IMG/VR virus record: IMGVR_UViG_2541047699_000011
Length of the DNA stretch: 10,189 nucleotides
Direction: 5' to 3' (one strand)
Source: a virus
Taxonomy: Duplodnaviria; Heunggongvirae; Uroviricota; Caudoviricetes
A model generated the notes under the pieces. It searched no databases and was not told the DNA's origin. It worked only from the letters and a program-made list of their open reading frames with translations. Both the position numbers and the translations under genes were made by a program. Shown here one piece after another: positions 1 to 10,189 of this stretch. The first letter of the stretch is position 1, and every line of letters starts with the position of its first letter.

Positions 1-447
1 GTTTTACATGCCTTGACTTATCGGATGAAATTCTCTTACTGAATTTAACGGCAGTTTAATAGCCGTACAACTCGTGGTAGCCAGGGAAATATCCCAGTCG
101 TGGTTAAGGTTGTACTTGACGGCTATTATTTCAACAATGCTTAAAGTGAGAGCTTAAGGTTATGCGTATGTTTTACAGTCCGAGTAGATTCTGACCAATA
201 GCTTCTTTGTATAATTCTGTCAGAAATAAATCTTGGCTTGCATGAAGTTTGAGACCTTATCTTGTTTGATTATGAATAATCAATTCGCCATAATTGTATC
301 ACCGGAGCCTGAACAACTCCGGTGACTTCTGCGCTAAACGGGGACGTTTATGCGCACACACAATCCAAACTCTCTTCTCCCTTCACAGATGCAGAAATGC
401 ACCTGCGTTTTTTTGCATCCAGCGTCTGACCTCTGTGGAGGTGAAGC

Positions 448-903
448 GTGAACCTACCACAAGATGGCATCAAACTGCATCGCGGTAACTTCATCGCTAT
501 CGGCCAGCAGATCCAGCCTTATCTGGAGGACGGAAAATGCTTTCGCATGGTGCTTAAACCGTGGCGTGAGAAACGCAGTCTTTCCCAGAATGCACTCAGC
601 CATATGTGGTACAGCGAAATCAGTGAATACCTCATCAGCAGGGGGAAATCGTTCGCTACCGCAGCATGGGTAAAAGATGCTCTCAAACACACATACCTCG
701 GTTATGAAACCAAGGACCTGGTTGATGTCGTAACCGGCGAAATCACTACTATCCAGTCGTTACGCCATACCTCCGATCTTGATACCGGAGAGATGTATGT
801 CTTCCTGTGTAAGGTTGAAGCCTGGGCGATGAATATTGGCTGCCACCTGACTATTCCGCAGAGCTGCGAGTTCCAGCTGCTGCGCGACAAGCAGGAGGCG
901 TAA
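448..903 (+). CDS. ybcN: NinB-family prophage protein (YbcN-like), 151 aa
   Basis: GTG start at 448 preceded by GGAGG; the translation [15 protein letters not shown]...[13 protein letters not shown] matches my recollection of DLP12 YbcN and the NinB-type 'RSLxQN...W' motif; stop TAA overlaps the next ATG (TAATG). Confidence 0.85.
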
Positions 904-1073
904 TGGCTACACCGCTTATTCGTGTCATGAACGGACACATCTACAAAGTACCAAATCGTCGTAAGCGTAAACCTGAGCTGAAGCCATCCGAAATACCAAC
1001 ACTGCTCGGGTATACCGCCAGCCTGGTTGATAAAAAATGGTTGCGACTGGCAGCAAGGAGGAATCATGGCTGA
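903..1073 (+). CDS. ninE: NinE-family small prophage protein, 56 aa
   Basis: Hand-translated [59 protein letters not shown], absent from the ORF track because it is short; sits between ybcN and ybcO as in DLP12; start overlaps the ybcN stop. Confidence 0.75.
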   Translation: MATPLIRVMNGHIYKVPNRRKRKPELKPSEIPTLLGYTASLVDKKWLRLAARRNHG

Positions 1074-1356
1074 TTTAAGAAAAGCAGCGCGTGGTCGGGA
1101 ATGCCAGGTAAGAATCCCTGGCGTATGTAATGGCAATCCTGAAACGTCAGTACTGGCACATATCCGGCTGGCTGGATTGTGCGGTACCGGTATCAAACCG
1201 CCAGACCTGATTGCCACCATTGCATGTTCTGCCTGCCACGACGAAATCGACCGTCGCACGCATTTTGTTGACGCTGGATATGCAAAAGAATGCGCGCTGG
1301 AAGGTATGGCGAGAACACAGGTTATCTGGTTGAAAGAGGGGGTTATTGAGGCGTGA
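1066..1356 (+). CDS. ybcO: DUF1364-family protein YbcO, Cys-rich putative zinc-binding nuclease, 96 aa
   Basis: Internal ATG at 1066 of the 1027..1356 track ORF gives [23 protein letters not shown]...ACSACHDE with CxnC...CxxC cysteine pairs; overlaps the ninE 3' end by 8 nt; conserved position ahead of rusA. Confidence 0.8.
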
Positions 1357-1715
1357 ATACCTACAGCATCACATTACCCTGGCCTCCGAGCAATAATCGC
1401 TATTACCGCCATAATCGTGGGCGCACGCACGTCAGCGCAGAGGGGCAGGCATACTGCGATAACGTCGCCCGAATCATTAAAAACGCAATGCTGGATATCG
1501 GCTTGGCTATGCCAGTGAAAATCAGCATTGAGTGCCACATGCCGGATCGCCGTCGCCGTGACCTTGATAATCTGCAAAAGGCCGCTTTTGACGCACTCAC
1601 CAAAGCAGGTTTCTGGCTGGATGATGCTCAGGTCGTTGATTACCGCGTTGTGAAGATGCCCGTTACCAAAGGTGGGAAGCTGGAGCTGACTATCACTGAA
1701 CTGGGAGATGAATGA
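1353..1715 (+). CDS. rusA: Holliday junction resolvase RusA, 120 aa
   Basis: GTG start overlapping the ybcO stop (GTGA); translation [23 protein letters not shown]...[25 protein letters not shown] matches recalled E. coli RusA almost residue for residue. Confidence 0.9.
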
Positions 1716-1852
1716 TGTTTGAGTCTTATATGGCAGAGCGTCTTCGCCGCCGCTGGGTGCGCCTGCGCTTATATCGTTTTCCTGGTTCTGTTTTGACCGA
1801 TTACCGAATACTGAAGAATTACGCCAAAACCCTGACAGGAGCAGGAGTATGA
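1712..1852 (+). CDS. ylcG: small DLP12-type protein YlcG, 46 aa
   Basis: ATGATG start overlapping the rusA stop; hand translation [46 protein letters not shown]; short, so not in the ORF track. Confidence 0.55.
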
Positions 1853-1937
1853 AGTCAGAGATAACAATCAACTAATACTGTTTTGTTGATTTTTGCTTGT
1901 AATTGGCGTTCTGGTCTGATTTTTGTGGAGTAAGTTG

Positions 1938-2321
1938 ATGCGTGATATTCAGATGGTTCTTGAGCGTTGGGGAGCGTGGGCGGCTAATAATCATGAAGAT
2001 GTGACCTGGTCGTCCGTTGCCGCCGGTTTTAAGGGATTAATTCCTTCAAAAGTAAAATCTCGCCCGCAATGTTGTGACGATGACGCGATGATCATTTGCG
2101 GGTGCATGGCCCGTCTGAAAAAGAACAACAGCGATTTACACGATTTATTAGTAGATTATTATGTATGTGGTATGACATTCATGTCACTGGCAAGTAAGCA
2201 TTGCTGCTCGGATGGTTATATCGGGAAAAGGTTACAGAAGGCTGAGGGCATAATTGAAGGGATGTTAATGGCATTAGATATCCGGTTAGATATGGATATC
2301 GTTGCTAATAATTCTAATTGA
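1938..2321 (+). CDS. quuD: late-gene antiterminator Q (phage 21/82-type QuuD), 127 aa
   Basis: ATG at 1938 preceded by GGAG; translation [24 protein letters not shown]...[16 protein letters not shown] matches recalled DLP12 QuuD; it sits immediately before a leader region and a strong intrinsic terminator. Confidence 0.85.
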
Positions 2322-2458
2322 TATGCAATTGTTTACTAAAAGTTATTAAAAATGGGGCGTGGAAACGCCCCCAAAATAAAGGGTAATATATAACAGAAGG
2401 TTTATATAGTAAGAAGCAAGGTAGTGCTTCTAAAGGAAGTGGCTTGAGGGCTCCACTT
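2322..2458 (+). promoter_or_regulatory. candidate late promoter (pR'-like) and Q-utilisation leader
   Basis: Position directly after Q and before a strong terminator mirrors the lambda pR'-qut-tR' layout; AT-rich with TTGTTT/TATTAA-like hexamers, but no convincing -35/-10 pair with 17-bp spacing could be fixed by eye. Confidence 0.25.
2352..2376 (-). terminator. candidate intrinsic terminator downstream of nmpC
   Basis: Perfect hairpin GGGGCG-TGGAAA-CGCCCC; on the - strand it is followed by ATTTTTAATAACTTTT. It lies ~135 nt beyond the nmpC stop, so assignment is tentative. Confidence 0.3.
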
Positions 2459-2502
2459 ATATGTTGCGGAGGCAAAGCCTCCCGCAACATATCTTTTTCG
2501 TA
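2459..2502 (+). terminator. rho-independent terminator (tR'-like, end of a short late leader RNA)
   Basis: ~15-bp near-perfect stem ATATGTTGCGGAGGC / GCCTCCCGCAACATAT with an AAA loop, followed by CTTTTTCG on the + strand. Confidence 0.55.
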
Positions 2503-2509
2503 AGTCAGA

Positions 2510-3592
2510 TTAGAACTGATAAACCAGACCTACAGCGACGATGTCGTCGGTATCAATACCAGCTGTTTTGGTAAACTTACTATCGTCAATTAAGTTGATT
2601 TTGTAATCAACAAAAGTGGACATGTTTTTATTAAAGTAGTAAGTAGCACCGACATCGACATACTTGACTAAGTCTCGGTCACCATGAACACCAAGGTCTT
2701 TACCTTTTGACTGAAGGTAAGCAACAGATGGTCGCAGACCGAAGTCAAACTGATATTGTGCTACTGCTTCAAAGTTTTGTGCTTTGTTTGCAATATGGTT
2801 ATTACCAAAAACGGTCATATTCTGAGTTTCAGAATATGTGGTAGCCAGATAGATATTGTTCGCATCATATTTCAGGCCTGCAGCCCATACTTCCGCATTT
2901 TTGCCGGAGGCATTGAATTTGCTCTTACCATAGGCGACCTGACCGTCAGTGCGATCTGATTTAGCATAGGTTGCACCCACGCCGAATCCTTCATACTCAT
3001 AAGTAGTGGAGAAACCGAAACCATCACCATTGGCTTCAGTTACGTCAGTGCGGTCATTTTTACCCTGATACTGAGCAGCAAAGTTCAGGCCATCGACCAG
3101 ACCAAAGAAGTCGTTGTTACGATAAGTTGCAACACCAGTAGTGCGACCAGTCATGAACACATCTGTTTGGGTCCAGGTATCACCACCGAATTCTGGCAGG
3201 ACGTCAGTCCACGCACCGATGTCGTATGCTACACCGTAGTTACGGCCGTAATCGATTGAGCCGTAATCACCAAATTTCAGGCCTGCAAATGCAAGACGGG
3301 TTTTGTCTTTGGAAGAACCTTGAGATTCAGCACGGTTGCCTTTGAATTCATATTCCCACTGACCGAAACCAGTCAGTTGATCGTTGATTTGGGTTTCACC
3401 TTTGAAGCCAAGACGGGCATAAGTAGTATCACCATCATCTGCATCATTAGAGGAGAAGTAGTGCTTGGCATTAACTTTCCCGTATAGATCCAGCTTGTTA
3501 CTGTCTTTATTATAAATTTCAGCTGCCTGAGCAGACATCGCCATCAGTACTGATGCAGCTACAGCAGAAATTGCCACTGTTAATTTTTTCAT
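2510..3592 (-). CDS. nmpC: outer-membrane general porin, OmpC/OmpD/NmpC family, 360 aa precursor
   Basis: Signal peptide [23 protein letters not shown]|AEIYNKD, porin hallmark LYGKV...GFKGETQ, and C-terminal ...VGLVYQF ending in Phe; uninterrupted ORF. Confidence 0.9.
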
Positions 3593-4018
3593 TGTACGCC
3601 CTTTTTTTTGAACTATTATTAAAAAATGATGTCACTGCGCGATAAATATTCATCTAATCAATGCGATTATTTCAAGATGTAAGTTTTAGTTTCTCATTTA
3701 ATTTGTGAAGTAGATCTCTATTTTTATCTGAACCTTTTCTATCTAATCCTATTCATGGCTCTTGTTTGAACGAAAATAAATCTATTAGCTAATTTATATT
3801 AATGGCACTTATTTATAAGCGCTCTATAATTCTTTAACTTAATTTAAACAAACTAAAAATAACATCGGAAATTATTCATTGGTTATTTGTTGAAGTTTTC
3901 TTATGTATTTGTGGTGGTGTTTTGAACACTCGGTGGCATTCTCACAAATATCATTTAGTAGTTTACGTACGTAAAAAATTGGTTATGCTGTTAAGAGTGG
4001 TTACTTCGTCACACAGCT

Positions 4019-4050
4019 TAAACCCGCCGTCGAGCGGGTTTTTCCATTTT
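4019..4050 (+). terminator. rho-independent terminator-like hairpin upstream of the holin gene
   Basis: AACCCGC-CGTCGA-GCGGGTT stem-loop followed by TTTCCATTTTTT. Confidence 0.4.
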
Positions 4051-4181
4051 TTGAGTCTCGATATTAGCTGATAACCCAATACCTGAGTTATTCACTGACT
4101 CCGAATCTGTTACGTTTCTGCCTTTATTGCGATACGTAGTATCCCCTTAATTTACACCCGCTTTGTCTGCGAGGTGGGGTT

Positions 4182-4397
4182 ATGAAATCCATGGATAAGT
4201 TAACAACGGGTGTCGCCTATGGCACCTCAGCAGGTAGTGCCGGGTACTGGTTTTTACAGTTGCTCGATAAAGTCACGCCCTCACAGTGGGCGGCAATAGG
4301 TGTGCTGGGTAGTCTGGTATTTGGCTTGCTGACGTATCTGACAAACCTTTATTTCAAGATTAAAGAAGATAAGCGTAAGGCTGCGAGAGGTGAATAA
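4182..4397 (+). CDS. essD: class II pinholin (phage-21 S type), 71 aa, dual-start motif
   Basis: [26 protein letters not shown]...[17 protein letters not shown] has two TMDs and a charged C-terminus [13 protein letters not shown]; Met1/Met4 dual start; GAGGTGGGG RBS; stop overlaps the next ATG (TAATG), as in S21-R21. Confidence 0.9.
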
Positions 4398-7300
4398 TGT
4401 CGCCATCATTACGCAAGGCTATTGCTGCTGCTATTGGTGGTGGGGCTGTTGCCATAGCGTCTGTGCTCATCACTGGTCCGAGTGGTGACGATGGCCTGGA
4501 AGGTGTCAGCTACATACCATACAAAGATATTGTTGGTGTATGGACTGTATGTCACGGGCATACAGGAAAAGACATCATGCTCGGTAAAACGTATAAAGGC
4601 AGCAGTAAGGGGCATACCCCGCGCGAAGCGAAGGACAACCTGAAATCCACGCAGTTACTGAGTGTGATCGATGCCATCAGCGAAGGGCCGATTGAAGGTC
4701 CGGTGGATGGGTTAAAAAGCGTGCTACTGAACAGTACGCCGGTGCTGGACACTGAGGGGAATACCAATATCTCCGGTGTCACGGTGGTGTTCCGGGCAGG
4801 TGAGCAGGAGCAGACTCCGCCGGAGGGGTTTGAATCCTCCGGCTCCGAGACGGTGCTGGGTACGGAAGTGAAATACGACACGCCGATCACCCGCACCATC
4901 ACGTCGGCAAACATCGACCGTCTGCGTTTTACCTTCGGTGTGCAGGCACTGGTGGAAACCACTTCAAAGGGTGACCGGAATCCGTCGGAAGTTCGCCTGC
5001 TGGTTCAGATACAGCGTAACGGTGGCTGGGTGACGGAAAAAGACATCACCATTAAGGGCAAAACCACCTCGCAGTATCTGGCCTCGGTGGTGGTGGATAA
5101 CCTGCCTCCGCGCCCGTTCAATATCCGGATGCGCAGGATGACACCGGACAGCACCACAGACCAGCTGCAGAACAAAACGCTCTGGTCGTCATACACCGAA
5201 ATCATCGATATGAAACAGTGCTACCCGAACACGGCACTGGTCGGTGTGCAGGTGGACTCGGAGCAGTTCGGCAGTCAGCAGGTGAGTCGTAATTATCATC
5301 TGCGCGGGCGCATTCTGCAGGTGCCGTCGAACTATAACCCGCAGACGCGACAATACAGCGGTATCTGGGACGGAACGTTAAAACCGGCATACAGCAACAA
5401 CATGGCCTGGTGTCTGTGGGATATGCTGACCCATCCGCGCTACGGCATGGGGAAACGTCTTGGTGCGGCGGATGTGGACAAATGGGCGCTGTATGTCATC
5501 GGCCAGAATTGCGACCAGTCGGTGCCGGATGGTTTTGGTGGCACGGAGCCGCGCATCACCTGTAATGCCTGGCTGACCACACAGCGTAAGGCGTGGGATG
5601 TTCTCAGTGATTTCTGCTCGGCGATGCGCTGTATGCCGGTATGGAACGGGCAGACGCTGACGTTCGTGCAGGACCGGCCGTCGGATAAGGTGTGGACCTA
5701 TAACCGCAGTAATGTGGTGATGCCGGATGATGGCGCGCCGTTCCGCTACAGTTTCAGCGCCCTGAAGGACCGCCATAATGCCGTTGAGGTGAACTGGATT
5801 GACCCGGATAACGGCTGGGAGACGGCGACAGAGCTTGTGGAGGACACGCAGGCCATTGCCCGTTACGGTCGTAACGTCACGAAGATGGATGCCTTTGGCT
5901 GTACCAGTCGGGGGCAGGCACACCGAGCCGGGCTGTGGCTGATTAAAACGGAACTGCTGGAAACGCAGACCGTGGATTTCAGCGTGGGCGCAGAAGGGCT
6001 TCGCCATGTGCCGGGCGATGTTATTGAAATCTGCGATGATGACTATGCGGGTATCAGCATCGGCGGGCGCGTGCTGGCGGTGAACAGCCAGACCCGGACG
6101 CTGACGCTCGACCGTGAAATCACTCTGCCATCCTCCGGTACCACGCTGATAAGCCTGGTTGACGGAAGCGGCAATCCGGTCAGCGTGGAGGTCCAGTCCG
6201 TCACCGACGGCGTGAAGGTAAAAGTGAGCCGGGTTCCTGACGGCGTTGCCGGATACAGCGTGTGGGGGCTGAAGTTGCCGACGTTGCGCCAGCGCCTGTT
6301 CCGCTGCGTGAGTATCCGTGAGAACGATGACGGCACGTATGCCATCACTGCCGTGCAGCATGTACCGGAAAAAGAGGCCATCGTGGATAACGGGGCGCAC
6401 TTTGACGGCGACCAGAGCGGCACGGTGAATGGTGTCACGCCGCCAGCGGTGCAGCACCTGACTGCCGAAGTCACCGCAGACAGCGGGGAATATCAGGTGC
6501 TGGCGCGCTGGGACACGCCGAAGGTGGTGAAGGGGGTGAGCTTTATGCTTCGCCTGACCGTGGCAGCGGATGACGGCAGTGAGCGGCTGGTCAGCACGGC
6601 CCGGACGACGGAAACCACATACCGCTTCACGCAACTGGCGCTGGGGCGGTACACGCTGACAGTCCGGGCGGTAAATGCGTGGGGGCAGCAGGGCGATCCG
6701 GCGTCGGTATCGTTCCGGATTGCCGCACCGGCAGCACCGTCGAGGATTGATCTGACGCCGGGCTATTTTCAGATAACCGCCACGCCGCATCTTGCCGTTT
6801 ATGACCCGACGGTACAGTTTGAATTCTGGTTCTCGGAAAAGCGGATTACCGATATCAGGCAGGTTGAAACCACAGCCCGCTATCTTGGCACGGCGCTGTA
6901 CTGGATAGCTGCCAGTATCAATATTAAGCCGGGCCATGATTATTATTTTTATATCCGCAGTGTGAATACTGTTGGCAAATCGGCATTCGTGGAGGCTGTC
7001 GGTCAGGCGAGCGATGATGCTTCCGGCTATCTGGATTTTTTCAAAGGCCAGATAACTGAATCCCATCTCGGCAAGGAGCTGCTGGAAAAAGTCGAGCTGA
7101 CGGAGGATAACGCCAGCAAACTGGAGGAGTTTTCGAAAGAGTGGAAAGACGCCAACGATAAATGGAATGCCATGTGGGGCGTCAAAATTGAGCAGACCGA
7201 AGACGGCAGGCATTATGTCGCGGGTATTGGCCTCAGCATGGAGGATACGGAGGAAGGCAAACTGAGCCAGTTCCTGGTTGCCGCTAACCGTATCGCGTTT

Positions 7301-7987
7301 ATTGACCCGGCAAACGGGAATGAAACGCCGATGTTTGTGGCGCAGGGCAACCAGATATTCATGAACGAAGTGTTCCTGAAGTATCTGACGGCTCCCACCA
7401 TTACCAGCGGCGGCAATCCGCCGGTATTTTCCCTGACACCGGACGGGCGGTTGACGGCGAAAAATGCCGATATCAGCGGTAACGTGAATGCGAACTCAGG
7501 GACGCTCAATAATGTCACGATTAACCAGAACTGTCGGATTCTGGGAAAACTGTCTGCCAACCAGATTGAAGGTGATATTGTCAAAACGGTGGGAAAAGCC
7601 TTTCCGAGAAATGGCAGTTATGCCAGCGGTACAATAACGGTCACTGTGTACGATGACCAGGCTTTTGACCGTCAGATAGTAATCCCACCCGTTCTGTTTC
7701 GCGGTGGTAAGCATGAAAACTTCAACAGCAACAACCAACAGTCATACTGGTATTCAACCTGTAAGCTGCAGGTACTGAAGAACGGACAGGAAATCTTTCA
7801 GCAACCCGCGACGGATGTCAGCAGGGTATTTTCATCCGTCATTGATATGCCAGCGGGACACGGCCATGTCACCCTGACTTTCAATGTTTCTTCATATGGT
7901 GCAAATAACTGGACGCCAACGACCAGTATCAGCGACCTTCTTGTTGTCGTGATGAAGAAATCAACAGCCGGTATCAGTATCAGTTGA
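4397..7987 (+). CDS. chimeric ORF: SAR-endolysin N-terminus (~66 aa, RrrD/R21-like signal-anchor) fused in frame to a lambda-J-type tail-tip host-specificity protein (~1130 aa)
   Basis: Residues 1-66, [66 protein letters not shown], match the phage-21 R / DLP12 RrrD N-terminus. From residue 67, [39 protein letters not shown]... follows lambda J from its third codon for more than 1100 residues. One uninterrupted frame. Confidence 0.85.
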
Positions 7988-8005
7988 ATTTTATAACCCA
8001 AATAC

Positions 8006-8034
8006 GGGCGCCAGAAATGGCGCCTTTTTTATTT
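8006..8034 (+). terminator. rho-independent terminator after the J-type ORF
   Basis: GGCGCC-AGAAAT-GGCGCC hairpin followed by TTTTTTATTT. Confidence 0.5.
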
Positions 8035-8045
8035 GTGGAGTGAAT

Positions 8046-9356
8046 ATGGCAGTACAGATTTCAGGCGTGCTGAAAGACGGTGCAGGAAAACCAATACAGA
8101 ACTGTACTATTCAGCTCAAAGCAAAGCGTAACAGCACCACGGTACTGGTGAACACGGTGGCCTCTGAAAATCCGGATGAAGCCGGGCGTTACAGCATGGA
8201 TGTTGAGTATGGCCAGTACAGCGTCACCCTGCTGGTTGAAGGTTTTCCGCCTTCACATGCCGGGACCATTACCGTCTATGAAGGTTCCAGACCAGGTACG
8301 CTGAATGATTTTCTCGGTGCCATGACGGAAGATGATGTCATGCCGGAGGCATTGCGTCGTTTTGAGGTAATGGTGGAGGATGTGGCACGCAACGCTGAAG
8401 CCGCCTCTCAGAGCGCAGCGGCAGCAAAGAAATCAGAAACAGCAGCGGCATCGTCCAGGAACGCGGCGAAAACATCAGAGACGAATGCAGGTAACAGCGC
8501 GAAAGCGGCAGCTTCTTCAAAAACAGCCGCACAAAACGCAGCAACAGCGGCAGAACGTTCAGAGACAAATGCCCGTGCGTCAGAAGAAGCCTCCGCAGAC
8601 AGTGAAGAGGCTTCCCGCCGTAATGCAGAGTCAGCCGCTGAAAATGCCGGAGTCGCCACCACAAAAGCGCGGGAGGCTGCAGCAGACGCAACAAAGGCCG
8701 GGCAGAAAAAGGATGAGGCTCTGTCGGCAGCGACACGAGCTGAAAAGGCGGCAGACCGCGCAGAAGCCGCAGCGGAAGTGACTGCAGAGCCCTATGCGAA
8801 TATAGTGCCGCCGCTGCCTGATGTGTGGATACCGTTTAACGATTCACTGGATATGATTGCGGGTTTTTCTCCGGGCTATAAAAAAATAGCTATTGGTGAC
8901 GATGTGGTTCAGGTCGCCAGTGATAAACAGGTTAATTTCAGTCGCGCATCAACGGCAACATATATCAACAAATCTGGCGAACTGAAAACGGCGGAAATTA
9001 ATGAGCCGCGATTTGAGTGTGATGGCCTGCTTATTGAGGGACAAAGAACGAACTACATGCTCAATTCGGAAAGTCCAGCCAGCTGGGGGAAGTCATCAAA
9101 CATGGATGTGCCCGAAACCGGGACGGATAGTTTTGGTTTTACTTATGGAAAGTTTGTCTGCAACGATTCTCTGGTTGGGCAAACTTCGGCTATTAATATG
9201 GCATCAATTGCTGCAACAAAGTCAGTTGATGTCTCAGGCGATAACAAGTACGTGACAACCTCATGCCGTTTTAAAACAGAACGACAGGTAAGGTTACGTA
9301 TACGGTTTGATAAGTATGATGGTAGTGCAACAACTTTTCTTGGCGATGCGTACTGA
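8046..9356 (+). CDS. stf: side tail fibre protein (Stf-like), N-terminal ~436 aa, 3' end truncated by an IS insertion
   Basis: ATG at 8046 with GGAG 5 nt upstream; MAVQISGVLKDGAGKPIQNCTIQLKAKRNSTTV...GRYSMDVEYGQYSVTL matches the lambda Stf N-terminus, followed by an Ala/Ser/Glu-rich repetitive shaft; the stop TGA (9354-9356) is the first three bases of the IS end. Confidence 0.75.
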   Translation: MAVQISGVLKDGAGKPIQNCTIQLKAKRNSTTVLVNTVASENPDEAGRYSMDVEYGQYSVTLLVEGFPPSHAGTITVYEGSRPGTLNDFLGAMTEDDVMPEALRRFEVMVEDVARNAEAASQSAAAAKKSETAAASSRNAAKTSETNAGNSAKAAASSKTAAQNAATAAERSETNARASEEASADSEEASRRNAESAAENAGVATTKAREAAADATKAGQKKDEALSAATRAEKAADRAEAAAEVTAEPYANIVPPLPDVWIPFNDSLDMIAGFSPGYKKIAIGDDVVQVASDKQVNFSRASTATYINKSGELKTAEINEPRFECDGLLIEGQRTNYMLNSESPASWGKSSNMDVPETGTDSFGFTYGKFVCNDSLVGQTSAINMASIAATKSVDVSGDNKYVTTSCRFKTERQVRLRIRFDKYDGSATTFLGDAY

Positions 9357-9425
9357 AGTGGTTTACTGAATTTGGCCACCTGAACAGAGGTGATATGCTC
9401 ACCTCAGAACAACACAGGTGCCATA

Positions 9426-10189
<764 letters not shown>

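Follow-up and report, generated by a model that had tools for sequence, protein, structure and literature searches.

The stf side tail fibre gene of a defective lambdoid Escherichia coli prophage is split by ISEc52

Overall organization of the locus

The window analysed here is the whole 10,189-nucleotide stretch of IMG/VR record IMGVR_UViG_2541047699_000011 (Caudoviricetes). Positions 1..4595 match the lambdoid Q/porin/holin/lysis region and 4594..9353 match J and stf; the sequence that follows belongs to an insertion sequence (IS). The features considered below are listed with their coordinates, their strand and the evidence from which they were assigned.

4397..7987, plus strand: lysozyme'-'J in-frame fusion, 1,196 residues (switch of phage matches at 4594/4595; Pfam)
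8046..9356, plus strand: stf', truncated side tail fibre gene, 436 residues and stop (ORF list, translation, PF08400, phrog_1419, PDB 9e7m)
9351..9353, no strand: left copy of the target-site duplication TAC, the codon for Tyr436 (flanks in the source scaffold)
9354..9356, plus strand: TGA stop codon of stf', nucleotides 1–3 of the IS (sequence reading, ORF end)
9354..10189, plus strand: ISEc52 (IS3 family), nucleotides 1–836 of 1,250 (the window stops in orfB, two bases before a scaffold gap)
9354..9389, plus strand: left inverted repeat (IRL), about 36 bp (length by analogy with the 36-bp right inverted repeat, IRR, of IS911)
9426..9728, plus strand: orfA, 100 residues, HTH_Tnp_1 DNA-binding regulator and N-terminal part of the transposase (PF01527, 52.4 bits; translation)
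9671..10189, plus strand: orfB, DDE catalytic part of the transposase, continuing past the window to IS nucleotide 1217 (frame analysis, rve)
9677..9683, plus strand: A AAA AAG, predicted −1 frameshift site joining orfA and orfB (motif at IS nucleotides 324–330)

The truncated stf gene and its stop codon

The plus-strand open reading frame that contains stf' extends from 8040 to 9356 (438 codons from a GTG) without an earlier in-frame stop. Its likely start is the ATG at 8046, which gives a product of 436 residues and a stf frame of 8046..9353. The frame closes with the TGA at 9354–9356, which constitutes bases 1–3 of the left terminus of the IS (TGAAGTGG); the window sequence from 9354 onward reads TGAAGTGGTTTACTGAATTTGGCCACC and represents the left inverted repeat. 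An earlier note on this DNA, made from its letters alone, had described the stf frame as entering the IS end and taking its stop codon from the first three bases there, and both the sequence and the end of the ORF bear out that description. The stf coding sequence reaches the IS with the codon TAC (Tyr436), and because this codon directly precedes the TGA of the IS, stf' carries no foreign residues. A TGA in the stf frame has roughly a one-in-three chance of arising from an insertion in such an orientation and so calls for no special explanation.

The right end of the element and the restored gene

The source of the window was located by exact look-up of the 436-residue product, which identified scaffold KE699075.1 of assembly GCA_000456385.1 (L003 below); the window corresponds to L003 1956..12144. 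It ends at this point because a scaffold gap of 610 N (L003 12147..12756) lies there, inside the IS, and the window stops two bases short of it. The last base of the window is nucleotide 836 of the 1,250 of the IS; that the window ends inside orfB had been stated in the earlier note. The contig ends flanking the gap overlap perfectly by 39 bp and, when this overlap is collapsed, an IS of exactly 1,250 bp results; the size assigned to the gap is probably an artefact of repeat assembly.

The right end of the IS (...GGTGGCCAGTTTTTGTTGACCACTTCA) is followed by TAC ATT GAT ACG..., and the left flank ends in ...GGC GAT GCG TAC. The flanks in L003 are accordingly GGCGATGCGTAC on the left and TACATTGATACG on the right of the IS, with a 3-bp direct duplication, TAC, on both sides. 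Target duplications of the IS3 family are 3–5 bp in length (PMC10379815), and TAC falls within this range of short direct repeats. The 3' part of stf resumes in frame directly after the IS. Removal of the IS together with one copy of TAC restores a 2,061-nucleotide ORF encoding a Stf of 686 residues, which is collinear without gaps with the rebuilt Stf of strain GN02323 and matches the Stf of phage 1W, except for a one-residue gap, up to the point at which the latter is itself truncated. The right inverted repeat and the duplication of 3–4 bp that the earlier note had proposed to look for are thus present in L003, as is the continuation of stf beyond the IS (251 codons). The same note had considered the C-terminal part of Stf to be displaced or lost; displacement is what is seen, by 1,253 bp, and nothing of this part is missing.

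The TAC duplication and the in-frame resumption of stf together identify the event as a simple insertion rather than an IS-mediated deletion. Judged from the window alone, which ends within orfB, a deletion or rearrangement was possible, in which the IS would mark a breakpoint and the 3' part of stf and the downstream genes would have been lost or moved. Rearranged copies of the element may exist, as indicated by the one at yjhR in E. coli 1434, an ISEc52 without matching 3-bp flanks (CGA versus CTT). In L003 as scaffolded across the gap, however, the right IS end is followed by the duplicated TAC and the remainder of stf and then, as in uninterrupted loci, by two small ORFs and sitDCBA, and the restored ORF matches intact homologues. 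Loss or relocation of the distal part through the IS is, on this evidence, extremely unlikely.

A second alternative concerns the gap itself, which could hide more than one IS copy (a tandem ISEc52 dimer, a composite or other DNA). Scaffolding had put the gap at a positive 610 bases, where one copy would require the contig ends to overlap by 39 bp, and elements of the IS911 type can form tandem dimers. On the other hand, short-read scaffolding gives untrustworthy gap sizes at repeats, the perfect 39-bp overlap yields exactly 1,250 bp with 100% identity to a full-length ISEc52 found elsewhere (see below), and the matching TAC duplication fits a single integration event. We regard additional DNA within the gap as very unlikely.

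A 400-bp query representing the empty site matches at 100% identity in FDAARGOS_536 and in several further E. coli genomes; of the 5,426 complete E. coli genomes, 974 have the site uninterrupted. When window positions 8700–10189 were compared by megablast with the 5,426 complete E. coli genomes, the stf/IS junction of the window was absent from all of them; one genome, GN02323, gave a match of full coverage. An exact search for the 44-nucleotide stf/IS junction among GTDB species representatives likewise returned no occurrence. GN02323 was considered as a second carrier of the same event and was rejected, since its insertion is a different one, 120 bp upstream. We are therefore highly confident that the locus records a simple, recent and strain-private insertion of ISEc52 into the stf gene of a defective lambdoid E. 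coli prophage.

The insertion may be pictured as follows. By homology with IS911, an OrfAB transposase made by programmed −1 frameshifting would form a figure-eight and then a circular copy of the IS, along a copy-out/paste-in route, and the abutted IRR–IRL junction of the circle would integrate into the target. A staggered cut between stf codons 436 and 437 would produce the 3-bp TAC duplication and, with the left end of the IS directed towards the 5' side of stf and beginning with TGA in the stf frame, the reading frame would stop at once. Frameshifting of OrfAB and the circle intermediate have been described for IS911 (PMC1636345), and it is from that biochemistry and from family membership that the route suggested for ISEc52 is drawn.

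Structure and identity of the element

The termini of the element are of the form 5'-TG...CA-3': the IRL reads TGAAGTGGTTTACTGAATTTGGCCACC, and the right end, taken as its reverse complement, is TGAAGTGGTCAACAAAAACTGGCCACC. The two repeats agree over the first 8 nucleotides (TGAAGTGG) and over a GGCCACC block. The IRL was delimited with reference to the IRR of IS911, which is 36 bp long (PMC1636345). Between the repeats, orfA occupies IS nucleotides 73–375; frame 1 is open to nucleotide 372 and frame 3, which is orfB, from nucleotide 318 to 1217. PF01527 was found on the orfA call and PF00665 (rve) on the orfB calls of L003. The overlap of orfA and orfB with its A6G site is the arrangement characteristic of the IS3 family, and −1 frameshifting at this site is predicted from the sequence. 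The fused OrfAB has 382 residues and matches NF033516, 'IS3 family transposase', with 380.6 bits (cut-off 160).

The portion of the IS inside the window is 99.3–100% identical to many chromosomal and plasmid copies annotated in RefSeq as 'IS3-like element ISEc52 family transposase'. The rebuilt 1,250-bp IS is 100% identical over its full length to an ISEc52-annotated copy in E. coli 1434 (NZ_CP184019.1), an identity that presupposes the merging of the two contig ends over their 39-bp overlap at the gap, the name being taken from the RefSeq annotation. It differs by one base from the ISEc52 copy in GN02323. Compared with the ISEc52 copies of RefSeq E. coli genomes, the element itself shows no difference and only its site of insertion is new. 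A copy in HB101 annotated as IS911 is more distant, with a nucleotide identity of 94.2% (1,178 of 1,250 columns; 72 differ).

The earlier note had called the element IS911-like and had held that it truncates stf, with the reservation that it might be a different member of the IS3 group. The truncation and the likeness to IS911 both stand, and the RefSeq name of the element is ISEc52. On the comparisons made here, 'IS911-like' appears accurate as a description, and ISEc52, a close relative of IS911, is the more precise name. The resemblance is extensive. Both elements share the TGAAGTGG...CCACTTCA termini, a 100-residue OrfA, the A AAA AAG site and a 382-residue OrfAB, and the 1,250-bp length and 3-bp target duplication of canonical IS911 agree with those of ISEc52 here. 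The right terminus is identical to that of the HB101 copy over the last 28 nucleotides (IS nucleotides 1223–1250), and within the first 68 nucleotides the left end differs only at positions 9–11, where the IRL has TTT instead of CAC; a further difference affects the three bases just upstream of the orfA ATG. With the same organization and 94.2% overall identity, the element could be taken for IS911 proper and not a distinct member of the family. That reading is unlikely, as copies 99–100% identical to it are consistently annotated as ISEc52 in RefSeq, those annotated as IS911 form a class at ∼94%, and there are 72 differences in the 1,250 aligned columns. In ISfinder practice, near-identity at the isoform level is what would warrant the name IS911.

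The HB101 copy of IS911 (L005) is 1,248 bp long, two of its A-runs (at alignment columns 324 and 1209) being shorter by one A. It has A5G at the frameshift site, which would fuse orfA and orfB directly; these deficits could be homopolymer sequencing errors or a real variant. RefSeq flags two ISEc52 copies, at L004 373..1542 and L001 9607..10776, as 'frameshifted' pseudogenes, with a CDS span that reaches IS nucleotide 1242. In these copies orfA, the A6G site and orfB look canonical, and the 382-residue OrfAB ends at nucleotide 1220; the flag is probably an issue of the annotation model tied to the A-run at IS nucleotides 1209–1214. The possibility that ISEc52 is dead, as this flag would imply, was rejected in view of the canonical frames and of the identical copies at many loci; the number of identical copies at different loci argues that the element is active.

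The Stf protein and its interruption

Intact Stf consists of an N-terminal attachment domain (residues 1–131), an Ala-rich coiled coil, a domain resembling the head spike fibre of gene transfer agents (GTA) and a distal laminin-G/ConA-like domain. The attachment domain corresponds to PF08400, 'prophage tail fibre N-terminal' (225.7 bits in Pfam), and residues 1–94 match PDB 9e7m, 'tail fiber protein'. Its reading frame begins 59 bp past the stop codon of a J-type gene, and the combination of PF08400 with this position identifies it as a lambda-type Stf. The spike-fibre-like domain was detected with NF048003 (GTA head spike fibre) on residues 329–529 and with PDB 6tb9 on residues 297–543 (E = 1.4e-9). 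The Laminin_G_3 match in the distal part scores 26.7 bits, slightly below the cut-off of 27.6, and places a laminin-G/ConA-like domain within the last 251 residues. Residues 297–543 (window ∼8934..9353 together with L003 13211..13531) are homologous to Rcc01080, the head spike fibre of the Rhodobacter capsulatus GTA. The presence of a GTA head-spike-fibre module in a lambdoid tail fibre was unexpected.

Similarity to Stf of phage lambda is confined to part of the protein. Both have the N-terminal PF08400 attachment domain and both genes lie directly after J, but the distal half of the present Stf is unrelated, being composed of the region similar to the R. capsulatus GTA head spike fibre and of a laminin-G/ConA-like domain; profile and structure matches of Stf yielded no homology of the distal receptor-binding part to lambda Stf or T4 gp37. 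The two genes are also alike in being dispensable and found disrupted: stf of the laboratory strain lambda PaPa is reportedly interrupted by a frameshift, according to Hendrix and Duda in 1992. Here an IS, and not a frameshift, is responsible, and, in a further difference from lambda, no tfa follows.

The IS falls between Stf residues 436 and 437, inside the spike-fibre-like domain, so that stf' contains the attachment domain, the Ala-rich coiled-coil region and the first half of the spike-fibre-like domain. The two halves of stf occupy adjoining parts of a single PHROGs profile (phrog_1419), with the 5' half matching profile positions 299–541 and the 3' half beginning at 541. The 436-residue product ends short of the distal domain and is probably incompletely folded, from which we infer a loss of function of the truncated protein. 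The 3' part, with its 251 codons including the ConA/laminin-G-like domain, is intact downstream of the IS and is without evident start signals of its own. The gene caller opened it at a TTG within the right repeat of the IS, which does not constitute proof of expression. A scan for consensus promoters and terminators on both strands of window positions 9150–9750 returned no sites, so that neither a terminator nor an outward-directed hybrid promoter is supported at the junction.

Genes downstream of stf

Two ORFs follow stf in L003, encoding 92 and 146 residues. Neither has a Pfam match, and in PHROGs they match only phrog_1361 and phrog_1443, both of unknown function; two such small ORFs come after stf in all related loci. 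Pfam and PHROGs searches recovered no recognizable Tfa chaperone downstream of stf. The proposal of the earlier note that any tfa assembly chaperone had been displaced or lost along with the tail fibre tip was thus not upheld: since no recognizable tfa follows stf in this type of phage, none could be lost.

Beyond the two small ORFs lies the sitABCD iron/manganese transporter operon (L003 14636..18085). In related genomes, a truncated icd fragment comes next after sitABCD. This arrangement suggests icd as the site at which the remnant integrated, sit being either cargo or a neighbour.

Other IS insertions in stf

Two further stf genes of this type carry IS elements. In GN02323 (L001), a second, independent ISEc52 occupies 9535..10784, 120 bp (40 codons) upstream of the site in the window. 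It has the same orientation and frame as the copy in the window, its target-site duplication is GTC, and its terminal TGA again serves as the stop codon. The GN02323 prophage keeps the tape measure gene and M, L, K, I and J upstream and is, by virtue of these tail genes, less decayed. In phage 1W (L002), a 2,532-bp element of the IS66 family lies near the 3' end of stf (9378..11909), with ends GTAAGCG...CGCTTAC and an 8-bp duplication, TATAATGG. The annotated 642-residue Stf of phage 1W is itself truncated, with a TAA stop inside the IS end. All three cases are independent simple insertions with their own duplications in which an IS end provides the stop, but the sites in GN02323 (120 bp upstream) and phage 1W (near the 3' end) differ from that in the window.

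Three independent insertions in one gene, two of them ISEc52 copies only 120 bp apart with the same orientation and frame and each with an immediate TGA, could indicate that stf is a preferred target or that loss of the distal receptor-binding domain has been selected, as opposed to neutral decay. Against this, the stf site is uninterrupted in ∼974 complete genomes; 995 genomes gave a match of some kind, no more than 21 of these are without the site, and the few of the latter that were listed are low-identity partial matches or GN02323 itself. No common motif is evident in the two ISEc52 target sites, the coincidence of proximity and orientation amounts to about 0.06 and was evaluated post hoc, and non-essential genes in dead prophages gather insertions neutrally. 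A hot spot or selection is consequently a very unlikely account of these insertions.

The prophage remnant

The prophage had undergone a large deletion before the IS arrived. In the 1,196-residue fusion ORF upstream of stf, Pfam identifies Phage_lysozyme on residues 34–83 followed by all of the J domains; approximately the first 66 codons of the lysozyme gene are joined to J from about its third codon. This fusion is what a deletion left behind when it took out the remainder of the lysis cassette, every head gene and those tail genes that precede J. Among 5,426 complete E. coli genomes, 79 have the fusion junction at 100% identity. One of them, FDAARGOS_536, in which the junction is annotated as two partial genes, has an intact stf site, and the deletion therefore predates the ISEc52 insertion. 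In FDAARGOS_536 (L006) an IS4 (6602..7947) lies inside the lysozyme'-'J fusion gene, with the stf site intact. The remnant is decaying through different IS insertions in different strains.

To the left of the window, genes were called for an esterase-type hydrolase and a Big_1/invasin-like protein, neither of phage type, and the gene calls of L003 include none for an integrase, for immunity or for replication. On its other side, the remnant adjoins sitABCD, with the icd fragment further downstream. Within the window, a gene for a 360-residue porin lies on the minus strand (2510..3592) between the Q antiterminator and holin genes. It contains Porin_1/Porin_4 domains and is annotated as ompC/nmpC-like in related genomes; we take it to resemble the nmpC cargo gene of prophage DLP12.

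Concluding remarks

An stf gene split by an IS is an ordinary and well understood event, already known both in kind and in the element concerned. Its importance beyond correct annotation is small, and it opens no question on the biology of the phage or of the IS. The proper annotation is a single stf pseudogene, interrupted by a full copy of ISEc52 with TAC as its target-site duplication, in a remnant that carries a lysozyme'-'J scar; annotation as a short tail-fibre gene plus a separate 'tail protein' would be wrong. The case is a clean textbook example of an IS terminus that provides a stop codon and, as a strain-private marker, the insertion could serve for typing. As the prophage had by then lost its head genes and the tail genes preceding J, truncation of stf would have no consequence for phage production and no plausible effect on phage function, and the ISEc52 insertion would represent a further step in the neutral decay of a dead prophage.
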